In this document: positions 5,218 through 43,798 of the stretch, one piece after another
How positions within the stretch are numbered: the stretch's first letter is position 1
Layout of the letters: every line of letters starts with the position of its first letter
Assembly: GCA_003151615.1 (NCBI GenBank)
Contig: PLXZ01000003.1
Coordinates: 3,545-67,544 of the forward strand
Direction: 5' to 3'
DNA: 64,000 bases
Source of the DNA: Candidatus Tayloriibacteriota bacterium
GTDB taxonomy: Bacteria > Patescibacteriota > Minisyncoccia > Phycocordibacterales > PALSA-1337
Translations under genes and position numbers: made by a program
Notes under the pieces: model-generated
The model's database searches: none
Told to the model about the DNA's origin: nothing
What the model saw: the letters and a program-made list of their open reading frames with translations, nothing else

Positions 5218-6144
5218 TCAAACTGACACAAGTTTTTCGCATTTGTTGTCAATGTAGAAGCTTGCCTGACCGACAAATGAAGCAAGTCCGGCAAGCAACG
5301 TGAGCGACTGGAGCGGACTGTCAACATTGTGACAGGTAAACTCGCGGCCTTCACCCGGACGACGGGAATAAAACCCTGTGTTGATGCCGCATGCGTCACC
5401 GGGAACAGTAAGCCCAATGGAACTGGAATCGCAGTCAACACGGATCGTCCCGCGAGCATGCGTATATCCATTCCCCCACATGTGCGTTTCCGCGGCAATC
5501 ATTGCTTCAAGGACATTTTTTACGATAATATGCTTCAACTCAAACGGATTTGAAGCGACATAATCAATAAAATCGGCACCGAAATAACCGTCGACTCCAC
5601 TGCCGTGCTGGCCATGCCGAGCTATTACGGAGACAGTAACATGTTGATGTTCCTTGGCGGAAGTGTCCTCGTCAACATCAAGAATTGCGAATAACAAACC
5701 AAGGCTGGAGGTAACGGCATACGCCGCCCGCCAGTCGTAAGTGTGTTGTATTTTGCTACCGTCGCAACGCAGGCATTTTTCGCCTTCACGCCATTCGTCA
5801 ATGCTTTCGCCGGTGCCGGCGCAATGTTCACAGGTAAAATGCGTCGGCATTTTGATGTGAGGAAGCAAAACACGAAACTCAAGATAATCCCCTGAGTCAC
5901 GCGTCTTTTGAAGCGCATGGTTGAAACCAAAAGAATCGCCCCCCGCAAGATCACCTGAAAAAGAATCAAAAAATGTATCCAAATCATGCGTTTGGATTAT
6001 GTTTTGAATCCACGGCGCATCCCTGGAAATAACTTTGACGAAACGAAGACAATCGCGATGAACGTCAACGATAATTGCCTCTTGATTGCTATCCCAGCGT
6101 AAATGATACTTCCGCGGGATACGGTCATACTGCATTAATTTCAT
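5218..6144 (-). CDS. Hypothetical protein with DnaJ-type CxxCxGxG zinc-finger hairpin
   Basis: 308 aa. CEHCAGTGE-x13-CLRCDG matches the CR-type zinc-finger repeat. I recognised nothing in the rest of the protein. Confidence 0.5.
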   Translation of the reverse strand: MKLMQYDRIPRKYHLRWDSNQEAIIVDVHRDCLRFVKVISRDAPWIQNIIQTHDLDTFFDSFSGDLAGGDSFGFNHALQKTRDSGDYLEFRVLLPHIKMPTHFTCEHCAGTGESIDEWREGEKCLRCDGSKIQHTYDWRAAYAVTSSLGLLFAILDVDEDTSAKEHQHVTVSVIARHGQHGSGVDGYFGADFIDYVASNPFELKHIIVKNVLEAMIAAETHMWGNGYTHARGTIRVDCDSSSIGLTVPGDACGINTGFYSRRPGEGREFTCHNVDSPLQSLTLLAGLASFVGQASFYIDNKCEKLVSV

Positions 6145-6275
6145 AAGAACCCTTTTGTTAAAGATTGACTGAGATTAGAATACACCTTCACTAGGTTTAG
6201 TCAAATGAACGCAAAAATTTTAGTAAAATTTTATTCTTTTTTTAGAGAAAATTCATTTCGATTTGATATCGTAAA

Positions 6276-6653
6276 TTGATGTCAAAAGAAGAATTAAAAG
6301 AATTCATAAAAAATACTCGTGAAAAATACAAACATATAAGGTACGTAGAATGTCCAGCCTTTGGAGGTGAAAAAATATATTTTACCAAACATGGATTCAA
6401 TCATCTTTTGAGAAAAGGTCGAATACCGCGAAGTATGGACGAACAAATACGGAGACTCAAATTACTAAGATATGTCGTTAAAATAATTGAGAAAAACCAT
6501 GCATTTGAGAGTTATCGAAAAGCTGAAAAACTCAATTCTATTCTGCATTTCTGGTCTTTTAAAAAGGTCATCGCCGGTAAAACCATTTTTGTAGTTATTT
6601 GCCAAAGAAACGACAAACCTAAAACATTCCTAAGCATCATGGATAAAAATTAA
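6276..6653 (+). CDS. Hypothetical protein (AT-rich gene)
   Basis: 125-aa ORF. It is divergent from 5218..6144 and shares an AT-rich promoter region with it. A clear intrinsic terminator follows. Confidence 0.5.
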   Translation: MMSKEELKEFIKNTREKYKHIRYVECPAFGGEKIYFTKHGFNHLLRKGRIPRSMDEQIRRLKLLRYVVKIIEKNHAFESYRKAEKLNSILHFWSFKKVIAGKTIFVVICQRNDKPKTFLSIMDKN

Positions 6654-6854: not shown

Positions 6855-8033
6855 ATGCGCCACCACCCGTCGATCAATCATCCGACAAAGATTGTCTACA
6901 CGATCCTTCTCATCGGTTTCATTTATACCCTGCACCTGACATTGCCGGTGTACATCGCGTCGAGCTTCCTTTCGACCTTCACAGACGAAAACACGGTCGG
7001 ACTGCTCTATACGATTGCGTCGCTTTTCACTATCCTTGGCCTGTTTTTGATCGGTCCGGTTTTGACGCGCTTCGGCAACTATCGGACTTCTCTGGCGCTG
7101 ATTGCGATCCAGCTTCTGCTCTTTTTGGGCTTCATAACGGCCACTTCGTTCAATGCGATTGCGGTCATATTCATCGTGTCGACGGCGATCGTGGCTCTTA
7201 TGGGATTGAACCTCGACGTTTTTTTGGAGACCTATTCCGAAGTTCGCAACACCGGCGGCATCCGCGGTTTATATATGGCGATAAACAATGTGGCTTGGAT
7301 TTTGGCACCACTTTTGGGCGCGGCGCTCCTTGTCGGCATTCATTACCGCAATGTGTATGTTGCGGCATTCACGCTTCTTTTTGTTCTGCTCTATCTTATA
7401 TATAAAAATCTGCGGCATTTCGAAGATCCGCATTACGGACATCTGTCCTTTCATCAGACGCTCGGACGTGTATTTAAAAACAAGGATCTCTCCAAACTTT
7501 TTGCGGCAAACATTATTTTGAACACCTTCTACAGCTGGATGGTCATTTACATGCCAATCTATTTGTACAAAACGATGGGCTTCAGCTGGGACAGCATCGG
7601 CATCATATTGACGGTCATGCTTTTGCCATTCGTCATATTTCAATATCCGGCCGGCCGATTGGCTGACAGCGGCTGGGGCGAGAAGAAAATCATGAGCCTC
7701 GGCTTTCTCATCATGGGCCTTTCCTGCTGTGCCCTGGCGTTTATAACGACCAACAGCCTCATTGTGTGGGCCGTGGCGCTGTTTGTGACGCGCATAGGAG
7801 CATCGATCGCCGAAGTCATGATTGAAGCCTATTTCTTCAAAAAAGTCAGCCCAGAAAATGCGGATTTACTGACATCATTCCGCGTGACGCGATACGGCGC
7901 ATACATCATCGCTCCGGCAATCACCGCCATCGGCATTTATTACGGCATCAATAATGGAAACATTTTTATTGTCCTCGGCTTGATTATTTTCTGGGCACTG
8001 CGATACACGCTGACGATTACGGATGTGGTTTAG
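6855..8033 (+). CDS. MFS transporter
   Basis: 392 aa with about 12 predicted TM helices and MFS-type loop motifs (for example GRLADSGWGEKK between TM helices). Confidence 0.8.
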   Translation: MRHHPSINHPTKIVYTILLIGFIYTLHLTLPVYIASSFLSTFTDENTVGLLYTIASLFTILGLFLIGPVLTRFGNYRTSLALIAIQLLLFLGFITATSFNAIAVIFIVSTAIVALMGLNLDVFLETYSEVRNTGGIRGLYMAINNVAWILAPLLGAALLVGIHYRNVYVAAFTLLFVLLYLIYKNLRHFEDPHYGHLSFHQTLGRVFKNKDLSKLFAANIILNTFYSWMVIYMPIYLYKTMGFSWDSIGIILTVMLLPFVIFQYPAGRLADSGWGEKKIMSLGFLIMGLSCCALAFITTNSLIVWAVALFVTRIGASIAEVMIEAYFFKKVSPENADLLTSFRVTRYGAYIIAPAITAIGIYYGINNGNIFIVLGLIIFWALRYTLTITDVV

Positions 8034-8278
8034 AAGCCGGCGACGGATTTCGATTTCAAATATACTGCCACAGCCTCCCTGTCCGAATCCGCGAGAATTT
8101 CACCGTCGATATCGAGTGTCGGCGTTTTCGTCTGGCCCGATTTCGCGACAAGCTCGTCGAAATACGCCTTGTTGCCGAGGACTTCGCGCTCTTCATATTT
8201 GACGCCTTTTTCGGCGAAGAGATCGAGAACTCCCTTGCACCACGGACAACCGCGTTTTGTGTAGAGGATTATGGTCAT
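8030..8278 (-). CDS. Glutaredoxin-family protein (NrdH/Grx-like)
   Basis: 82 aa with a CPWC active site near the N-terminus and a thioredoxin fold. An extended -10 (TGcTATAAT) lies about 10 nt upstream of the ATG. Confidence 0.8.
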   Translation of the reverse strand: MTIILYTKRGCPWCKGVLDLFAEKGVKYEEREVLGNKAYFDELVAKSGQTKTPTLDIDGEILADSDREAVAVYLKSKSVAGF

Positions 8279-8321
8279 TAGATTTTTATTATAGCATGAG
8301 TGCCGGGAGTGCTTTTTCCTT

Positions 8322-8440
8322 CATCAGCATGCAAATGCGAATGCGAAAATCAGACCCTATATTTTAAGCCATACTTTGTGCGTAATTTATATTAAATTCG
8401 CATTTGCATGCTGATGATGTTTAAAGAAAGACTCGCTCCC
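8322..8440. repeat. Hairpin-forming repeat element, copy A
   Basis: catcagcatgcaaatgcgaatgcgaaaat ... attaaattcgcatttgcatgctgatgatg forms a long stem, followed by the tail tttaaagaaagactcgc. A second copy lies at 10569-10752. Confidence 0.8.
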
Positions 8441-8485
8441 GTCCGTTCGCGTACCCGTCCGCGCCTCCATTCCAACGACACATTA

Positions 8486-9391
8486 TTATTTTTTCAATTC
8501 CGCTGACGCAACAACTTCCCACTCCTTCAAAACGCGGCGCGCTTCGATAGTCAAAAACATCGGGATTTCCTTGCGGATGCGGTTTTCTTCCTCGGCGCGC
8601 GGGCCGGCGACGCTGTTTTTATGCGAAACCCATTCCTCCAAACGGGCCACGTTGAAGCCGGCCTTGGTCAAAGTCTTGAAATACACCTGCAACGGACGGT
8701 GGAACGAAACCGTGAATTTTTTTGAGGTCGCTCGATCCTCACCCGGAGTCATGTCGATTCGTTCGCGGGATTCGGACATATATGCGTCGATGCGACGATA
8801 TTGATGACCTGCGCCCGGAGCGCCCTTGCCCGGTTCGCTGACATGATCCCACTGCCAGCTCGAGCGTTTCGGTATTCGGAATGCCGGATGGTTCAAGACG
8901 ATGAACAAACGACCGCCTGATTCAGTTGCCGTCGCCGGCCTCAAAACGCGCGCGCATTCCTGCATGGTTCCGGCCAAGTCCTCAATATTTTGTAAAGCCA
9001 AAACGACCGTAATGAGATCGATGCTTTTGTCCGTGATAAATTTCAGCGAATTCGACGGTGCGACATGATATTCGATTTTCCGCGTGACTGCGTCGGGATT
9101 TGCCTTGGCAATTTCAATCAGTTCCTTTGCGATATCCGCGCCGAAGACTTTCGCGGGACCTTCACTCGTTCCGCCGGCCTTTCCGCTTTGCCCAACTTTC
9201 GCCAACTCACGCGCGAAAAATCCCTGACCGCATGCAAGGTCAAGGACATTCGCGCCTTTGAGCGCACTGCTTCCGATCATCCGCATAAGATTCGGCAAAA
9301 TAACGTCTTTCTGATACGTACCCTCCCGCTTCTCGAGAAGCTCGTCATACCAGCCGGACACGCCGCCCCATGAAGTTTTCGTTGTGTTCAT
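8486..9391 (-). CDS. Class I SAM-dependent methyltransferase with ~100-aa C-terminal extension
   Basis: VLDLACGQGFFAREL is motif I and FIVLNHP is the motif IV region. I place the start at MNTTKTSWGG (9391), which overlaps the stop of the upstream nuclease gene by 1 nt (translational coupling). The track ORF extends to 9532 in another frame of the nuclease gene. Confidence 0.75.
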   Translation of the reverse strand: MNTTKTSWGGVSGWYDELLEKREGTYQKDVILPNLMRMIGSSALKGANVLDLACGQGFFARELAKVGQSGKAGGTSEGPAKVFGADIAKELIEIAKANPDAVTRKIEYHVAPSNSLKFITDKSIDLITVVLALQNIEDLAGTMQECARVLRPATATESGGRLFIVLNHPAFRIPKRSSWQWDHVSEPGKGAPGAGHQYRRIDAYMSESRERIDMTPGEDRATSKKFTVSFHRPLQVYFKTLTKAGFNVARLEEWVSHKNSVAGPRAEEENRIRKEIPMFLTIEARRVLKEWEVVASAELKK

Positions 9392-9392
9392 A

Positions 9393-10193
9393 TTATTTTT
9401 TATGATTATTCTTGACGACTTTCGCAACCGCATTTCGGTACAAACAATAATCGCAATCGTCCGCGGCCGGCGGCACCGCTTCGCCATCAAGACACTTTTT
9501 ACAATCAAACAAAGCACCCTCGACCCACGCATCCGAACCGGTATACGGAATTAAATCAATATCAAATTCAAGCTTGCCATCAAATGACTTTCGATCGGTT
9601 TTTCCATTGCAGTACACAAAATATCCCGTGTCGGAAACGGTAAAACCGGTGCGACGGACGAGCCATTGATACATTTCCATTTGGCGCTTGTAACCGCCCT
9701 GCCATTCGGCATCGAGCGTGACTTTTGTCTCTTTGCTTGTGGCCTTGTAATCGACAATGATGATTTCGTTCTTGCCTTTTGGACCGGCCTTTTCGCGAAC
9801 CCATAAATCATCGACGGCTCCGGTCATGATGAAATTCGTCGGCTCATGATGAAATTGGACGCCTTTAAAATTTTCGCGCCACTCGTCAAGCTTGCTGTGG
9901 GCGAACGGAATTGCGTCGAGTCCGTACGCCTTCATGAGCGGATGCGCCGTTTTTTTGGCACGGTGAATGTCAAATTCCTTTTTGAGAAGGGTGTCGACGG
10001 CGGAATTGAGGGCAAAAGGATATCCTGGCGGACGTCCCACGCCAAGCCGCCGGTCCAGATAGAAACAGCGCGGACAATCAAGAAAAAGCTCTATTTTCGA
10101 ACGCGAAAGGCGAAAAGGTTCGCCGTCAGGCGCTGCGTTTTTCTTCGGATCATAGAGGTTACGGCTGCGATTCGGATTATAGTATTCGGACAT
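9393..10193 (-). CDS. PD-(D/E)XK nuclease, RecB/Cas4-like with Fe-S cysteine cluster
   Basis: An N-terminal CPRC cysteine plus CKKC-x13-CDYC near the C-terminus give the 1+3 Cys arrangement of Cas4/AddB nuclease domains. GAVDDL and IVDYK give the D...(D/E)xK motifs. RQMEMYQWL gives the RecB-family QxxxY motif. Confidence 0.75.
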   Translation of the reverse strand: MSEYYNPNRSRNLYDPKKNAAPDGEPFRLSRSKIELFLDCPRCFYLDRRLGVGRPPGYPFALNSAVDTLLKKEFDIHRAKKTAHPLMKAYGLDAIPFAHSKLDEWRENFKGVQFHHEPTNFIMTGAVDDLWVREKAGPKGKNEIIIVDYKATSKETKVTLDAEWQGGYKRQMEMYQWLVRRTGFTVSDTGYFVYCNGKTDRKSFDGKLEFDIDLIPYTGSDAWVEGALFDCKKCLDGEAVPPAADDCDYCLYRNAVAKVVKNNHKK

Positions 10194-10231
10194 GCGGCTA
10201 TTCTAGCACACTCGAGAAAATTCAAGAAAAA

Positions 10232-10507
10232 TTATTTGATCGCGCCCTCTTTTTTTAAAATTTCCCTTTTTTTGGCCGTACCTCCTCGGTTATAATTTCC
10301 AAGAGTACCGTCGGAACGGATGACTCGGTGGCATGGAATTTTCGGATCAAAATTGCCGGCCATGATTGTCCCGACCGCGCGTGCGGCTTTCGCATTTCCC
10401 GCCTTGCGCGCCACTCCCGCATACGTCATCACCTTCCCTTTCGGGATTTTTCTGACGATGTCGCGGACTTTTTCGGCAAAGGTTTTTGGCGTGGCTTTCA
10501 TGCGCAC
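10232..10507 (-). CDS. MGMT-family protein (O6-alkylguanine-DNA alkyltransferase DNA-binding domain only, active-site PCHRV retained)
   Basis: 91 aa. The PCHRV active-site motif and the surrounding helix-turn-helix of the Ogt/Ada C-terminal domain are present. There is no N-terminal domain. Confidence 0.8.
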   Translation of the reverse strand: MRMKATPKTFAEKVRDIVRKIPKGKVMTYAGVARKAGNAKAARAVGTIMAGNFDPKIPCHRVIRSDGTLGNYNRGGTAKKREILKKEGAIK

Positions 10508-10568
10508 ATTATAACAGAAAATATCATATCAAATTATGTCAGCGCGGGATTGATATGTCTTTTTTCTT

Positions 10569-10752
10569 CACCATCATGCAAATGCGAATGCGAAAATCTC
10601 GGGTCATATTTAGAGGCATATTTTATATGAAGAAGATATTAAATTCGCATTTGCGAATCGGGAATTTTGGGTCGAGGTTTTAAGCCATACTTTCGCTGTC
10701 AAAATAGAGTTTTTCGCATTTGCATGATGGTGATGTTTAAAGAGAGACTCCG
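10569..10752. repeat. Hairpin-forming repeat element, copy B (expanded)
   Basis: The arms are the same as copy A (gcaaatgcgaatgcgaaaat / cgcatttgcatg) but read caccatcatg/catgatggtg instead of catcagcatg/catgctgatg, so pairing is preserved. The internal segment is duplicated, and the tail is tttaaagagagactccgc. Confidence 0.8.
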
Positions 10753-10778
10753 CCCGCCATCCATGCTACTATGGCCGA

Positions 10779-12068
10779 ATGAAAAAAGGAGCGGCAAAAG
10801 AAGACCGAATATGGGACGTCATCGTTGTTGGCGGCGGACCGGCGGGCATGATGGCCGCGGGACGTGCGGCTGAACGCGGCGCCAGCGTTCTCCTCCTGGA
10901 GAAAAACGAATCTCTCGGCAAAAAACTGCTCATTACCGGCGGCGGACGATGCAATGTGACAAATGCCGAGCTCGACACGCGCGCATTGCTCGCGAAATTC
11001 AAGGACAGCGACCAATTTCTGTTTTCGGCTTTTACACAGTACGGTGTCGCCGAAACGCTCGACTTTTTTCATACGCGTAACATGCCGACAAAAGAAGAAG
11101 CTCTCAAGCGCGTTTTCCCCGCAAGCAATACCGCCCAATCAGTCTGGGAAACGCTTGTCGCATATTTGAAAGCGAGCGACGCAACAATCATGTCGAATGC
11201 GCAGGTCATCAAATTCAATGCATCGGAAGAAAAAGGCGCGCAAAAAATTACATCCGTATCATTGAAAGGAGGAAAAGAAATCCGCGGTAAATCATTTATT
11301 CTGGCAACCGGCGGCACATCGCGGCCGGAAACCGGTTCGACGGGAGATGGATTTAAATGGCTGCGCGAGCTCGGACACAAAGTTTCCGAACCAAGCACGG
11401 CACTCGTGCCGATTTCAATAAAGGACGTGTGGGCGAAAAAACTGGCCGGACTTACCTTGCCCGAGATAAAAATCACCGTCCTGCAAAATGACGTTAAACA
11501 AAGCATGAAAAAAGGCAAGATTCTTTTTACTCACGTCGGTTTGAGCGGTCCGACCATTTTGAACATGAGCAAAGACATTGGCGAGCTTCTCAAATACGGC
11601 GACGTTTCCGTTTCGCTTGACCTTGCGCCATCGCACGATTTCAGTACGCTTAATACGGCATTACAGGAACTTTTTAAAAAGGAACATCGCAAAAAAATTA
11701 AAAATGCTTTTGGCGAAAGCTTCGGTGACTTGATTCCTAATCGTCTTGTTCCAATCATTCTCGAACGTTCGGGGATTTCTCCAGAAACCGCATGTAACAG
11801 CGTAACCCGCGAACAGCGCATCGCCTTGATGCAGGTCATAAAAGATTTACGCATGCACGTTCGCGGACTTTTGGGCGTCGACAAGGCAGTCGTCACTTCC
11901 GGCGGTGTCGCCCTTTCCGAAATTGATTTCAAAACCATGCAATCGCGCATTGTGCCAAACCTATATGTTGTCGGCGACGTACTCGACATCGACCGTCCTT
12001 CGGGCGGCTACAGCCTTCAATTGTGCTGGACAACGGGATGGGTTGCGGGTGATAACGTAGCGAAATAA
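10779..12068 (+). CDS. NAD(P)/FAD-dependent oxidoreductase, HI0933/BaiN family
   Basis: VIVVGGGPAGMMAA dinucleotide-binding motif, GGGRCNVTN, and the C-terminal block characteristic of HI0933-like flavoproteins. Confidence 0.85.
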   Translation: MKKGAAKEDRIWDVIVVGGGPAGMMAAGRAAERGASVLLLEKNESLGKKLLITGGGRCNVTNAELDTRALLAKFKDSDQFLFSAFTQYGVAETLDFFHTRNMPTKEEALKRVFPASNTAQSVWETLVAYLKASDATIMSNAQVIKFNASEEKGAQKITSVSLKGGKEIRGKSFILATGGTSRPETGSTGDGFKWLRELGHKVSEPSTALVPISIKDVWAKKLAGLTLPEIKITVLQNDVKQSMKKGKILFTHVGLSGPTILNMSKDIGELLKYGDVSVSLDLAPSHDFSTLNTALQELFKKEHRKKIKNAFGESFGDLIPNRLVPIILERSGISPETACNSVTREQRIALMQVIKDLRMHVRGLLGVDKAVVTSGGVALSEIDFKTMQSRIVPNLYVVGDVLDIDRPSGGYSLQLCWTTGWVAGDNVAK

Positions 12069-29413: not shown

Positions 29414-30247
29414 TTAACTCAAATCTTTGAGTTTCTTCGCCTTACTTGACTGAAAATTCTCGCTCGACAACGCGCGTTTGCCGGTCTTTTCTTCTATTTT
29501 TTTACGCGCATCCCCCGCAATGCCGCCACCTGCGCGGGCTACGCTTTTGTGTTCATCAATATTTTTCGGCTCATCTTTTTTTGAGATTTCCGTCGTGGCG
29601 GTTTCAGCCAACATGTTCAAAACCAGTTCGAGGTTCATCATATTGTCACGCAAATTTTCCTTTTTCAAGCCTTTAAAATTTTTGTAGTCGCGCGTGCGCA
29701 AACCGGCCCACGCAAAAGTGATTTCGTCCGTCAACACCGCAAAATCAGTCGGCGATTTAACGCCACCCTTTTCCCATTCGTCGGTCAAATCTTTTCGTAT
29801 CTCGATGGACTTGAGACGCTGATTGATCCAGCTCAAACTGTAACCTTTCTTCAAATATGTCCGCAAAGCGCGGTTAATTGCCAGTTCCGGGTCCTCGGTT
29901 TCTTCAACGCGTTCATACCCGACGCGGGCTAACCAGAGTTTAAATGGTTCAGCTTTTGGAGATGGAATTGATTGTATAATACGGAATATTGTCTCGGTGT
30001 CGGCGACGTCGGTTTCTCGTTGTTTCCCGTCTTCAGCAATCATTTTCAACTGTCCGATTTTTGCGGACAGTTCACTTCCCTCGTCGTTAAGGCGTCTTTT
30101 GAGATCATCCCAGTATTTTCGGGGTCGGTCGCTACCAGATAATGCCGCCACAACGTCAACAACCGAGAAAAACCATTTCTCGCTTTTCTCGTCCCATGAT
30201 TTTCTGATTGTCGCGCCTTCGAATAAAGCGACTGCGGTTTTTTCCAT
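29414..30247 (-). CDS. dinD: DNA-damage-inducible protein D homolog (Bro-N/KilA-N-like N-terminal domain)
   Basis: An N-terminal Bro-N-like block (KWFFSVVDVVAALSGS). The C-terminal half aligns with E. coli DinD (TDFAV..KGLKKENLRDNM..ELVLNMLAETATTEISKK). Confidence 0.8.
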   Translation of the reverse strand: MEKTAVALFEGATIRKSWDEKSEKWFFSVVDVVAALSGSDRPRKYWDDLKRRLNDEGSELSAKIGQLKMIAEDGKQRETDVADTETIFRIIQSIPSPKAEPFKLWLARVGYERVEETEDPELAINRALRTYLKKGYSLSWINQRLKSIEIRKDLTDEWEKGGVKSPTDFAVLTDEITFAWAGLRTRDYKNFKGLKKENLRDNMMNLELVLNMLAETATTEISKKDEPKNIDEHKSVARAGGGIAGDARKKIEEKTGKRALSSENFQSSKAKKLKDLS

Positions 30248-30326: not shown

Positions 30327-30945
30327 TTATTTTTTTGAAATGGAATTCAAAGTTATGTCGGCAAGATTTTTACACCCCGCCATACGCATACATTCCTTGA
30401 GTTCAGTATCAAGAATATTCAGGACATCAACAAGTCCATCTTTGCCGTTCATTGCCAAGCCATACAAAGCAGGCCTTCCAATAAGGACAGCTTTTGCTCC
30501 CAGGGCTAAAGCTTTGAAAATATCGGCTCCATTTCTAACACCACCATCAAGATACACGTCAATCTTTTCTTTTATGTCGGATGAAAGCATTGTCAGACTA
30601 TCGAGCGTTGCAATGGCCTCATCGTTTTGTCGGCCACCATGATTTGAAACCACAATAGCTTTAGCCCCAACTTCGATAGCCTTTTTGGCGTCATCATTGC
30701 TCAAAATTCCCTTGAGGATAACTGGCAGTTTTGTATATGAGATAATCTCTTTAATGACATCCCAATTGAGAACCATCGGCATATATTTCTCATAGTAATC
30801 ATCGAGAGTTGTATACGGTAAGGCTGAATTTTCAGGAAATACCGGCAGTCTTTTGAATATAATCCGTCAGACTTGGACCAAGCTTTTCTATGACAGCTTT
30901 TTGATAGTCAGCTATATTTTGAAGTTTTTTAACCTTCATAGCAAC
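30327..30945 (-). pseudogene. Disrupted FMN-dependent alpha-hydroxy-acid dehydrogenase (LldD/glycolate-oxidase family) remnant
   Basis: The 151-aa ORF carries only the C-terminal half (SNHGGRQ and the TIM-barrel end). Upstream on the same strand a 35-aa ORF (MKVKKLQNIADYQKAVIEKLGPSLTDYIQKTAGIS*) matches the family N-terminus and is then interrupted. About 150 aa of the middle are missing. Confidence 0.6.
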
Positions 30946-43228: not shown

Positions 43229-43798
43229 CTAGTACTTTCTTACCACGCCTTTCACAACCGCGGCAATCCTGAAATCCTCCTTTGGATATATAGGCTTGTA
43301 TTTTTTATTGGCTGGTTCAAGATACGGCGATCCGTTCGGTTTCTTGCGGAAATACTTCATGGTCCAGCCGCCATCTACTTCGGCAATGACAATATCGCCG
43401 ACTTTTGGTTCGCCTTTGCGTTGGGCAATAACCAAGTCACCCTCGTGAATGCCGGCCTCTATCATAGAATCACCTTTCACTTCCAACATATAGGTTGAAT
43501 TTTTGTCCTCGACAAGATAATCATCGATATTCATGGTATCGAGAGTGTCTTCTTCGGCAACCGAAGGAAAGCCCGCTTCAACAAGACCAAGCACGGGAAC
43601 TTCCCCGAGTAGTTTGTTCGGGATGAGACGTCCGCTGGCGTCTTTACGTACAATACCCTCTTCGATCAGTTTATTGACTAATTTATAGACGGCATTTTTC
43701 GATTTGAAGCCGACCAGCTTCATAATCTCCGCATAGCTTGGCATGCGTTTGCTGTTCCGATAGAAACCGAGAATTTTATTCGTATAGTCGGTAATCAT
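43229..43798 (-). CDS. lexA: LexA repressor
   Basis: An N-terminal winged HTH and a C-terminal S24 peptidase domain with GDSM (Ser) and Lys (RKGEPKVGD) residues. A GAAC-N4-GTTC box lies upstream of the operon. Confidence 0.9.
   Translation of the reverse strand: MITDYTNKILGFYRNSKRMPSYAEIMKLVGFKSKNAVYKLVNKLIEEGIVRKDASGRLIPNKLLGEVPVLGLVEAGFPSVAEEDTLDTMNIDDYLVEDKNSTYMLEVKGDSMIEAGIHEGDLVIAQRKGEPKVGDIVIAEVDGGWTMKYFRKKPNGSPYLEPANKKYKPIYPKEDFRIAAVVKGVVRKY

Follow-up and report, generated by a model that had tools for sequence, protein, structure and literature searches.

On balance, the two repeat copies found in the window (the whole 64-kb stretch of DNA analyzed here) are best explained as independent members of a small REPIN/ERIC/Correia-like family of hairpin-forming intergenic repeats. 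The family is confined to one narrow Patescibacteria clade, made up of Paceibacteria-like MAGs recovered largely from peat metagenomes. In Patescibacteria, where genomes are very small and intergenic spacers short, few regulatory or repetitive elements are known; here a non-coding element of 120-190 nt is kept at several loci. Its upkeep at multiple loci, its conservation above that of synonymous sites, its exact spacing and its covarying stems point to one of two things: a selfish hairpin repeat that persists and has no described counterpart in Patescibacteria, or a functional DNA/RNA module near leaderless promoters. Either outcome would merit cataloguing.

Copy A occupies positions 8312-8434 of the forward strand (123 nt), between the methyltransferase stop codon (8486) and the promoter of the grx gene, and was delimited with a repeat finder. 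Copy B occupies positions 10559-10750 of the same strand (192 nt), between the divergent MGMT and flavoprotein promoters. Their homology was confirmed by sequence comparison and by the repeat finder, over essentially the same intervals that a sequence-only reading had proposed (8322-8440 and 10569-10752). Copy A is a one-unit element of the u1 type. Its 22-nt 5' arm (8321-8342), which includes the box GCAAATGCGAA at 8331-8341 and the copy-specific outer stem CATCAGCATG, is 100% complementary to the 3' arm (8396-8417), which holds the inverted box TTCGCATTTGC at 8397-8407; the central loop motif TTTTAAGCCATACTTT lies at 8362-8377. Copy B is a two-unit element (u1 + u2), closed by a perfect 21-bp stem between its 5' arm (10568-10588, with the box at 10578-10588 and the outer stem CACCATCATG) and its 3' arm (10713-10733). 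Between these arms lie the unit 1 central motif TTTAGAGGCATATTTT (10609-10624), the central palindrome TTCGCATTTGCGAA (10644-10657), which is common to both units and in which the 3' box of u1 and the 5' box of u2 overlap, and the unit 2 central motif TTTTAAGCCATACTTT (10678-10693).

The arm and tail strings reported as common to both copies are exact, and each occurs at two window positions only: GCAAATGCGAATGCGAAAAT at 8331 and 10578 (0.04 expected by chance) and GATGTTTAAAGARAGACTC at 8416 and 10732. The two compensatory stem pairs noticed in the sequence-only reading are likewise real, with CATCAGCATG:CATGCTGATG in copy A corresponding to CACCATCATG:CATGATGGTG in copy B through T:A to C:G and G:C to T:A replacements. 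The predicted fold of copy A reaches -54.4 kcal/mol as RNA (z -8.7) and -31.7 kcal/mol as DNA (z -7.6), and that of copy B -64.9 kcal/mol (z -4.0). Covariance model scores were 86.8 bits for copy A (8331-8407) and 82.9 and 43.4 bits for copy B (10578-10654 and 10655-10715). A search of the window with the central motif gave five matches against 0.39 expected, three of them inside copies A and B. Searches of the 64 kb with nhmmer and the covariance model revealed no further copies; the only additional hit, at positions 6201-6266, scored weakly (20 bits), lacks the central motif and was not counted.

The architecture of the family was established from ten copies, which yielded 15 repeat units and one divergent unit. 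Every copy consists of one or two 69-nt units, in which an 11-12 nt box and its inverted copy stand exactly 55 nt apart in 15/16 units (14/15 of the main family plus the divergent unit). The box sequence is invariant across all main-family copies. A conserved 16-nt motif, TTTWRAGCCATAYTTT, occupies the middle of the loop with 1.58 bits per position, compared with 0.67-0.70 in the flanking loop; the rest of the unpaired loop is variable, and no conserved pairing inside the loop was found among family copies. Beyond the boxes, each unit has another 10-20 bp of closing stem, the sequence of which is copy-specific while its self-complementarity is kept, and the outermost ends are the least conserved part of the element. 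The u1 and u2 unit types each cluster across genomes, which identifies the two-unit form as ancestral. The internal loop duplication that had been proposed for copy B is correct as to length, B being 69 nt longer than A, but the cross-genome comparison reverses its direction: the two-unit form is the older one and copy A lost a unit. In one related genome (L013), unit 1 is 100% identical between its two copies (L013A and L013B), which may reflect intragenomic copying or conversion.

Analysis of stem covariation provides further evidence for the hairpin. Across eight full copies and 24 stem pairs, 7/24 pairs changed on both sides, and the observed values were reached by 0-1 of 500 shuffles. Stem cells are paired in 90.6% of cases, and sliding the partner by 1-3 columns leaves only 25-38% paired. 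The divergent copy (L036 4147-4223) carries a compensatory C:G to A:T change inside the otherwise invariant box. Hairpin complementarity is therefore maintained, as the comparison of A and B alone had suggested. Identity of the elements between genomes is 76-86%, or 81-86% by a narrower figure, whereas four-fold degenerate sites of neighboring genes are only 42-58% identical (0.42-0.58); loops of the same unit type are 71-82% identical. Two qualifications apply to the causes of this pattern. Quasipalindrome template switching is a replication route to stem complementarity (PMC7202029), and the stem covariation could partly be a by-product of replication through this route rather than of selection. 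The strict spacing and the sequence conservation could equally reflect a host function.

Copies were also recovered at other loci, and at least five unrelated loci are occupied in total, all of them in promoter-proximal spacers. The contig of the window carries a third copy at a distance of ~113 kb, in the spacer separating murB from secA (L030 11070-11193); the 64-kb window holds two copies, and 21 kb of additional sequence accessed through orthologous loci adds one. Among related genomes, L013 carries copies at both sites orthologous to those of A and B, one of them inverted; L022/L016 carry a copy at site B (MGMT/flavoprotein) and L023 one at murB|secA. Copies upstream of a Fur-like gene are present in L027/L036 and L040/L041, and a copy adjoins an aminoacyl-tRNA synthetase gene in related genomes. 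No copies beyond these were found in ~300 kb of related loci. A pattern scan of genome contigs returned only five palindromes, from Lachnospiraceae, Phaeodactylibacter and Dysgonomonadaceae; inspection assigned them to coding-region or other hairpins unrelated to the family. Ten of 14 metagenome matches were likewise rejected as chance palindromes, and nothing resembling the element turned up in viral contigs or in phage and plasmid records.

At orthologous sites, orientation and unit number differ between genomes, and the element may be present or absent between sister lineages. At site B, it is present in the window and absent from L034 (86% identity), present in L013 and absent from L035 (88% identity), and present in L022 with one arm only in L007 (87% identity). 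Site C (murB|secA) is occupied in L030 and empty in L033. Sites with and without the element, compared within the power that flank divergence allows, show no consistent target-site duplication; their boundaries are ragged, with 12-60 nt of extra flank. At site C, at most a TAG direct repeat is seen. Most copies look vertically inherited. The elements are inherited at their sites, where they switch orientation, shed a unit when the stretch between repeated boxes is deleted, erode until a single arm is left or disappear in full.

The genes around the two copies are not part of the element. On the reverse strand (8030-10501) these are grx (8030-8278), a SAM methyltransferase (8486-9391), a PD-(D/E)XK/Cas4-like nuclease (9393-10193) and an MGMT-like gene (10232-10501); no tRNA or tmRNA genes were found in the window. 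Candidate promoters adjoin both copies. The putative flavoprotein promoter (10744-10772, forward strand) would combine GAGACT of the element tail, as a -35-like hexamer, with a 17-nt spacer and the extended -10 TGCTACTAT in front of a leaderless gene (ATG at 10779). This promoter was identified by visual inspection, the consensus scan having given no hit there; the same arrangement of GAGACT, spacer and extended -10 is also seen in L013, L022 and L007. On the reverse strand, the leaderless grx has a putative extended -10, TGCTATAAT, at 8288-8296, 16 nt from the left end of copy A and compared with L007. The MGMT-nuclease-methyltransferase operon has a putative extended -10, TGTTATAAT, at 10508-10516, a box also found in L007 and L034. 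The element may incidentally contribute to promoters, in that the hexamer AAGAC(T/A) within its A-rich ends could serve as the -35 region of adjacent extended -10 promoters, such as that of the flavoprotein gene.

Copies A and B do bracket exactly three genes and share one orientation, judged by the loop motif, as the sequence-only reading had stated. That reading offered a repeat-bounded cassette as one interpretation. In such a model, the two direct copies would act as recombination or boundary sites (attC-like or MITE-pair-like) mobilizing the MGMT-nuclease-methyltransferase operon. In its favor, the right end of copy A lies 51 nt from the methyltransferase stop codon and the left end of copy B 57 nt from the MGMT start codon, just outside the operon ends. 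The comparison with relatives nevertheless makes this model extremely improbable. The operon and its outer neighbors are syntenic in genomes that lack the repeats. L007-L012 have the order grx-methyltransferase-(extra genes)-nuclease-MGMT-flavoprotein, the same as in the window, with a 20-nt grx/methyltransferase spacer free of any repeat and a single arm in the MGMT/flavoprotein spacer, and L034 and L035 have repeat-free spacers of 36-42 nt. Finding the same genes without flanking repeats is the very outcome that had been named in advance as contradicting a cassette boundary. The two copies of L013 are inverted relative to each other and MGMT is missing there, while the remaining copies of the family adjoin unrelated genes. 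Integron cassettes are present or absent exactly at their repeats and have an integrase nearby; neither pattern is seen here, and the ~65 ORFs of the window contain no transposase, integrase or Y1/RAYT (Y1_Tnp) domains. Judged by gene order, the operon between A and B is ordinary ancestral synteny, not cargo. This result carries a warning: an operon can come to lie between two direct copies of a dispersed repeat by accident of position, and comparison with relatives is needed before such bracketing is called a cassette.

Two further explanations assign the element a direct role in gene expression. The box (TTCGCAwwTGCGAA, or its TGCRAA hexamers) may be the site of a clade-specific 101-aa protein consisting of a Fur-family DNA-binding domain only, so that the elements would form an operator array in front of leaderless promoters. 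The genes under its control would have redox, DNA-repair and housekeeping functions and would include that of the regulator itself, and the constant 55-nt distance would set helical phasing or looping. The invariant box, the fixed spacing and the promoter-proximal position of all copies are consistent with this, as is the 7-2-7 palindrome ATTCGCA-TT-TGCGAAT of the two-unit copies. In both distinct contexts seen, the Fur-like gene has a copy 90-107 nt upstream, with dnaE on the other side in one and an aminoacyl-tRNA synthetase gene in the other. The protein matches Pfam FUR at 27.2 bits over the DNA-binding domain (wHTH) only. Its distribution is no wider than that of the element (4 clusters among 5.8 billion proteins; one cluster and 2 weak hits among 1.84 billion representatives), and its cluster P0244 has the same longest contig (497,979 nt) as the window flavoprotein P0001. 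However, an operator leaves unexplained why outer stems differ between copies yet remain self-complementary and why the box covaries in the divergent copy. Stand-alone boxes occur in the window at chance level (5 versus 3.6 expected), sister lineages have the same promoters without the element, and the neighbors grx, MGMT, flavoprotein, secA, dnaE and aminoacyl-tRNA synthetase show no obvious common theme; an operator array is therefore regarded as unlikely. A structured RNA, in which the transcribed hairpin would serve as a 3'-end stabilizer or processing site (e.g., for RNase III) or as an sRNA with a target-pairing loop motif, is held to be about equally doubtful. The very stable fold of copy A (z -7.6 to -8.7), the covarying stems and the location just past a stop codon at sites A (methyltransferase) and C (murB) would suit such a role; a relative encodes RNase III at locus L040, and such effects within mRNAs are described for the hairpins of ERIC and Correia elements (PMC10969869). 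Against it, the whole window gave 0 Rfam hits at the gathering threshold, and a permissive search (E<=10) returned only miRNA-model noise, with E of 1 or more, overlapping the copies. At sites B and D, divergent promoters flank the element and point away from it, and the element is found in either orientation at orthologous sites. Counts of wobble pairs do not favor one strand (G:T 6 versus A:C 4), and the loop lacks conserved internal pairing. The terminator role also suggested earlier is not supported: with a T-run in front and an A-run behind, the stem lacks a U-tract, and the scan for terminators was negative at A and B.

By analogy with REPINs, ERIC and Correia elements, the active form is probably a hairpin extruded in single-stranded DNA or in a transcript, and the elements may have been mobile in the past. 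A trans-acting protein is proposed to read the invariant box at the base of the loop together with the central loop motif, which would explain why sequence is fixed at these two places and only complementarity is kept further out. The Fur-domain protein is a candidate for this partner. If so, the hairpin repeat and the clade-restricted 101-aa protein would form a previously unrecognized repeat-protein partnership, a REPIN-RAYT analogue built on a non-catalytic DNA-binding protein that reads box and loop motif on extruded hairpins or looped DNA before leaderless promoters. Such a partnership, which would give genome-reduced Patescibacteria a portable regulatory or architectural module, is considered quite unlikely at present.

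The element was compared with several known systems; a literature search on MITEs or palindromic repeats in Patescibacteria/CPR found nothing relevant. The attC sites of integrons are imperfect palindromes of 57-141 nt, with structure conserved more than sequence, that lie in direct orientation at cassette boundaries. The present element shares the palindrome, the more strongly conserved structure and the direct orientation, but it has no integrase and no R/L core sites, the genes enclosed are not a cassette and the copies sit at scattered single loci. An attC identity was rejected on unit size, genomic context and lack of partner genes. TIGR (tandem interspaced guide RNA) arrays also occur in Patescibacteria and also alternate a conserved edge, a variable segment, a conserved center, a variable segment and a conserved edge (PMC12045711). 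They are, however, long arrays of 36-nt units with box C/D motifs that adjoin a Nop-domain Tas gene, in CPR bacteria and phages (PMC12045711), whereas the units here are 69 nt long, dispersed and present as one or two per locus. A TIGR array was rejected on these differences, together with the lack of a Nop-domain protein in the window.

Correia elements and other MITEs resemble the repeat more closely. Like them (MITE definition in PMC11602168), it is a non-coding element of 100-200 bp with terminal inverted repeats of 20-30 bp. It also fits the wider MITE limits of at least 10-15 bp of inverted repeat around a short non-coding core (50-800 bp): its perfect arms span 21-22 bp and, at 87% complementarity, extend to ~31 bp. 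Correia elements are known to bring promoters with them, to invert and to sit upstream of genes (PMC10969869), and a position directly upstream of genes, promoter-like hexamers at the ends and inversion are all seen here. In contrast, the target-site duplication of 2-10 bp expected of a MITE was not found, and the ~65 window ORFs include no related IS or transposase. The spacing inside the element is strictly constant, and the outermost ends are the least conserved part, whereas ends bound by a transposase are usually the most conserved.

ERIC elements, the intergenic repeat units of enterobacteria, include longer variants distinguished by an internal block of ~70 nt, and relatives may differ in whether an orthologous site holds an ERIC copy. 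The element is similarly an imperfect intergenic palindrome of ~125 nt with a copy number that varies between related taxa. It differs in belonging to another phylum, in having no sequence similarity to ERIC and a much lower copy number, and in that its longer form is ancestral and made of two homologous units. An ERIC copy at the 3' end of a gene can change the level of its transcript (PMC10969869).

REPINs, which are hairpin-forming REP doublets mobilized by RAYT tyrosine transposases, offer the remaining comparison; the RAYT (Y1 transposase) gene is single-copy and usually has the repeats on its flanks. REPIN boxes are GC-rich and those of the element AT-rich; the 55-nt spacer of the element forms an unpaired loop that is conserved at its center; a handful of copies (2 + 1 in the accessible part of the genome) stands against tens to hundreds; and, with no RAYT in the accessible sequence, the recurrent neighbor of a copy is instead the gene of a small Fur-like DNA-binding protein. 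Yet the hallmark of REPIN-RAYT systems, inverted boxes at a fixed distance that form a compensatory hairpin, is present (55 nt in 14/15 units; 7 covarying pairs). The published description of REPINs is a close match (PMC3116915): it has a pair of conserved regions in inverted orientation, a spacer for which length is important, frequent compensatory changes, and singlets left behind as remnants. Further REPIN features (PMC3116915), namely a long hairpin predicted in ssDNA or RNA, tandem higher-order arrangements and long-term vertical inheritance at a site, all have their counterparts in the family described here.

The two hairpin repeats of the window, copy A (8312-8434) and copy B (10559-10750), belong to a repeat family referred to here as the element. 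A repeat finder aligned 8312-8351 with 10559-10598 at 93% identity and 8397-8434 with 10713-10750 at 92% identity, and reported long inverted repeats inside each copy. In the 64-kb window there are exactly two occurrences of the 20-mer GCAAATGCGAATGCGAAAAT (0.04 expected) and exactly two of the 19-mer tail (0.08 expected). Both stems are perfect, with 22 bp in copy A (8321-8342/8396-8417) and 21 bp in copy B (10568-10588/10713-10733), and their RNA folds are much more stable than those of shuffled sequence (z of -8.7 for copy A and -4.0 for copy B); the DNA fold (z of -7.6) likewise lies far above shuffled stability. The copies differ at two positions per stem arm (T:A to C:G and G:C to T:A), with pairing restored. 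The homologous hairpins and compensatory substitutions described by the sequence-only reading are thus borne out.

That reading had also considered the repeats, alternatively to matched operator/terminator elements, as possible bounds of a mobile or recombining cassette of three minus-strand genes, encoding an MGMT-type protein (10232-10501; 89 aa, with a PCHR active-site motif and a DNA_binding_1 domain only), a PD-(D/E)XK Cas4-like nuclease (9393-10193) and a SAM methyltransferase (MTase; 8486-9391). Copy A separates the MTase stop codon from the promoter of a glutaredoxin gene (grx; 8030-8278, minus strand), and copy B lies between the divergent promoters of the MGMT gene and an HI0933-type flavoprotein gene (10779-12068, plus strand). 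Related contigs were fetched with the flavoprotein as anchor; its nearest named homologues come from Patescibacteria/Parcubacteria/Paceibacterota MAGs, and the window has a match in an ENA metagenome contig of 333 kb. Contigs L007-L012 (flavoprotein 81% identical) share the window's gene order, SecG-SBP-RNase J-MFS-grx-MTase-(two extra genes)-nuclease-MGMT-flavoprotein-Pif1, with a grx/MTase spacer of 20 nt and an MGMT/flavoprotein spacer of 86 nt that holds a single arm and tail only (TTTTCGCATGTGCATGCTGGTGGGATTAAAAAGAAGACT). In L034, the window's closest relative (86%), the latter spacer is 36 nt long and repeat-free, with back-to-back promoters. L035 (88% to L013) is also repeat-free, and L013 itself carries a copy at each of the two orthologous sites, with the grx-side copy inverted and MGMT missing. 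The same gene order without repeats in relatives indicates that the three genes are ancestral synteny, around which the repeats come and go. This counts against the boundary claim on the terms in which it was made and leaves a mobile cassette very improbable: of the two proposals, a maintained hairpin stands and the cassette falls.

The surrounding genes vary between relatives. The window, L007, L022 and L034 have the MGMT-type gene; L013, L035 and L014 lack it, and there the nuclease gene directly faces the flavoprotein gene. The MTase/nuclease junction is a variable slot, empty in the window (9391-9393) and filled in relatives by one to three unrelated genes (L007 6416-8505; L013 1767-4817; L014 6380-9109): a pair of hypothetical genes, a gene for an Ig-like surface protein of 1016 aa, or a hypothetical pair with a holin-like gene in addition. 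Within the nuclease CDS, an imperfect 20-nt tandem direct repeat (TCCGGTCATGATGAAATTCG / TCGGCTCATGATGAAATTGG) occupies 9819-9858. Two orphan genes (5218-6653; 308 aa with paired CxxC motifs, minus strand, and 125 aa, plus strand), neither with a Pfam, PADLOC or PHROG match, separate RNase J from the MFS transporter; these two adjoin each other in L007 and L014, which marks the orphan pair as a ~1.9-kb insertion specific to the lineage. Elsewhere, a 151-aa ORF (30327-30782) matches only the C-terminal 40% of an FMN-dependent dehydrogenase (profile 205-348 of 350) and is probably a gene fragment. The window also encodes a LexA-like S24 peptidase (43229-43798) and a Bro-N domain protein (29414-30247), a type often associated with phages.

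Additional copies of the element exist and flank unrelated genes. A scan of JGI metagenomes with a gapped pattern returned 14 matches, four of them true relatives. Copies lie in the MGMT/flavoprotein spacer of L022/L016, between murB and secA in L023, and between a Fur-like gene and dnaE in L027. Via the MurB orthologue a third copy was reached on the window's own contig, some 113 kb away from copy B, where it occupies the spacer between murB and secA (L030 11070-11193); in L033 this spacer is empty (45 nt). The Fur-like protein as query led to two further loci, L036-L039, with a copy at the same site as L027, and L040/L041, with a copy between the Fur-like gene and an aminoacyl-tRNA synthetase gene rather than dnaE. 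A divergent copy occupies L036 4147-4223. Neither nhmmer nor a covariance model found a further copy in the window or across ~300 kb of related loci, and no true match came from a scan of GTDB species representatives or from viral contigs, phage records or plasmid records.

Stacking the copies revealed an architecture of one or two 69-nt units. The distance from the box GCAAATGCGAA to its inverted counterpart TTCGCATTTGC is exactly 55 nt in 14 of 15 units and 54 nt in the remaining one; the divergent copy keeps the 55-nt distance with the boxes GTAAATGAGAA/TTCTCATTTGC. Loop positions 21-36 hold a conserved motif, TTTWRAGCCATAYTTT, at 1.58 bits/position, against 0.67-0.70 bits/position in the flanking loop, and no conserved pairing was found in the loop interior. 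A palindrome at the centre, TTCGCATTTGCGAA, is common to the two-unit elements. First units cluster with first units across genomes, and second units likewise, so the two-unit form is older than the divergence of these genomes. Copy B does exceed copy A by 69 nt; with the two-unit form the older one, the difference points to a unit lost from copy A and not to a duplication gained by copy B. Among single units, the unit-1 type is represented by copy A and by the copy between murB and secA, and the unit-2 type by that of L022, as would be expected from deletion between directly repeated boxes. An AT-rich inverted repeat between the two orphan genes (6201-6266; TCAAATGAACG...TTTCGATTTGA) gives a weak covariance-model match (20.4 bits, E 0.036 over the window), lacks the central motif and may be a decayed relative or a chance match. 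Five Bacteroidota contigs (L005 4609-4670, L006 1230-1291, L019, L020 and L028) carry a conserved 62-nt stretch between the same 11-nt inverted boxes, one side extended to CATGCAAATGCGAA, in a coding-like context; they were rejected as an unrelated, chance overlap with the search pattern.

Three sister pairs emerge from the flavoprotein identity matrix (window/L034, L013/L035 and L022/L007), and in each the MGMT/flavoprotein spacer holds a full element in one lineage and none or half in the other; the outgroup L014 has no element. The window and L022 have common flanks outside this element (left GCGCGGGnTGAT, right CCCGC..CTCATGCTACTATGG), so the two look orthologous despite inversion and a different unit number. 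The simplest history would be one of repeated complete or partial deletion and inversion in place. Orientation also differs in the grx/MTase spacer (window versus L013) and upstream of the Fur-like gene (L036 versus L040). This gene and its upstream element lie between RNase HII and dnaE in L036 and after the synthetase gene in L040, and the divergent L036 copy occupies the position matching the L040 site, which suggests rearrangement between element copies. No target-site duplications were found at sites with or without the element, and no transposase, integrase or Y1 domain among the ~65 window ORFs.

Across the 24-bp stem of eight full copies, 90.6% of cells are paired and seven pairs have changed on both sides, values reached in 0-1 of 500 shuffles; sliding the stem partner by 1-3 columns leaves only 25-38% pairing. 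In the window's genome each of the three copies has an outer stem of its own, and all three are perfect (CATCAGCATG, CACCATCATG, CACTATCATG). The inner 14 bp do not vary within the main family, but the divergent copy shows a covarying change there (C:G to A:T). Maintenance of the hairpin is upheld by this covariation, with templated quasipalindrome mutation, which can yield complementary arms without selection, as an alternative source (PMC7202029). Elements are 81-86% identical between genomes, compared with 42-58% at four-fold degenerate sites of neighbouring genes, so the element is either constrained or renewed time and again from conserved copies. The two L013 copies have a 100% identical unit 1, showing intragenomic copying or conversion.

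An extended -10 box (TGnTAnnAT) can be read 5-7 nt 5' of the ATG of grx (8288-8296, minus strand), the MGMT operon (10508-10516, minus strand), the flavoprotein gene (10764-10772, plus strand) and secA (L030, about 11237-11245), which would imply leaderless mRNAs for all four. The (G/A)AGACT tail hexamer lies 17-18 nt 5' of the flavoprotein -10 box in all tail-bearing genomes, so the element probably supplies the -35 region of that promoter.

We lean towards reading the element as a REPIN/ERIC/Correia-like hairpin repeat family with no relation to any cassette. An operator array, in which the box is the binding site of the Fur-like protein, appears unlikely. The invariant box and fixed spacing would suit it, and an element copy lies 90-107 nt upstream of the Fur-like gene (L027 1211-1516; L036 10001-10267; L040 10001-10306; P0244 in the window's genome) in both distinct contexts seen. 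The 101-aa protein, with a Pfam FUR match over the DNA-binding domain only, is moreover distributed as narrowly as the element (four clusters at 90% identity among 5.8 billion proteins; one cluster and two weak matches among 1.84 billion representatives). However, binding leaves the copy-specific, co-varying stems unexplained, and no stand-alone boxes were found in the window; a link to this clade-specific DNA-binding protein is a tentative candidate. Similarly doubtful is a role as a transcript structure: the grx/MTase and murB/secA copies do lie directly 3' of stop codons, but those at the flavoprotein and Fur-like genes lie between divergent promoters, orientation flips, and Rfam gives no match. 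The wobble pairs (six G:T, four A:C) show no strand bias and so nothing pointing specifically to RNA. What stands is a hairpin repeat family, undescribed, low in copy number and precisely built, of a narrow Patescibacteria clade.

In its behaviour the element resembles palindromic dispersed repeats known from other bacteria, from which it differs in its unpaired loop with a conserved centre, its AT-rich sequence, its very low copy number and the lack of a known mobilising enzyme among the ~65 window ORFs. Correia and ERIC repeats parallel it in size, in lying upstream of genes, in inverting and in carrying promoter elements (PMC10969869). The closest published fit is provided by REPINs, which likewise have two conserved inverted sequences and a length-sensitive spacer, often show compensatory changes, and occur also as singlet remnants and in tandem (PMC3116915).
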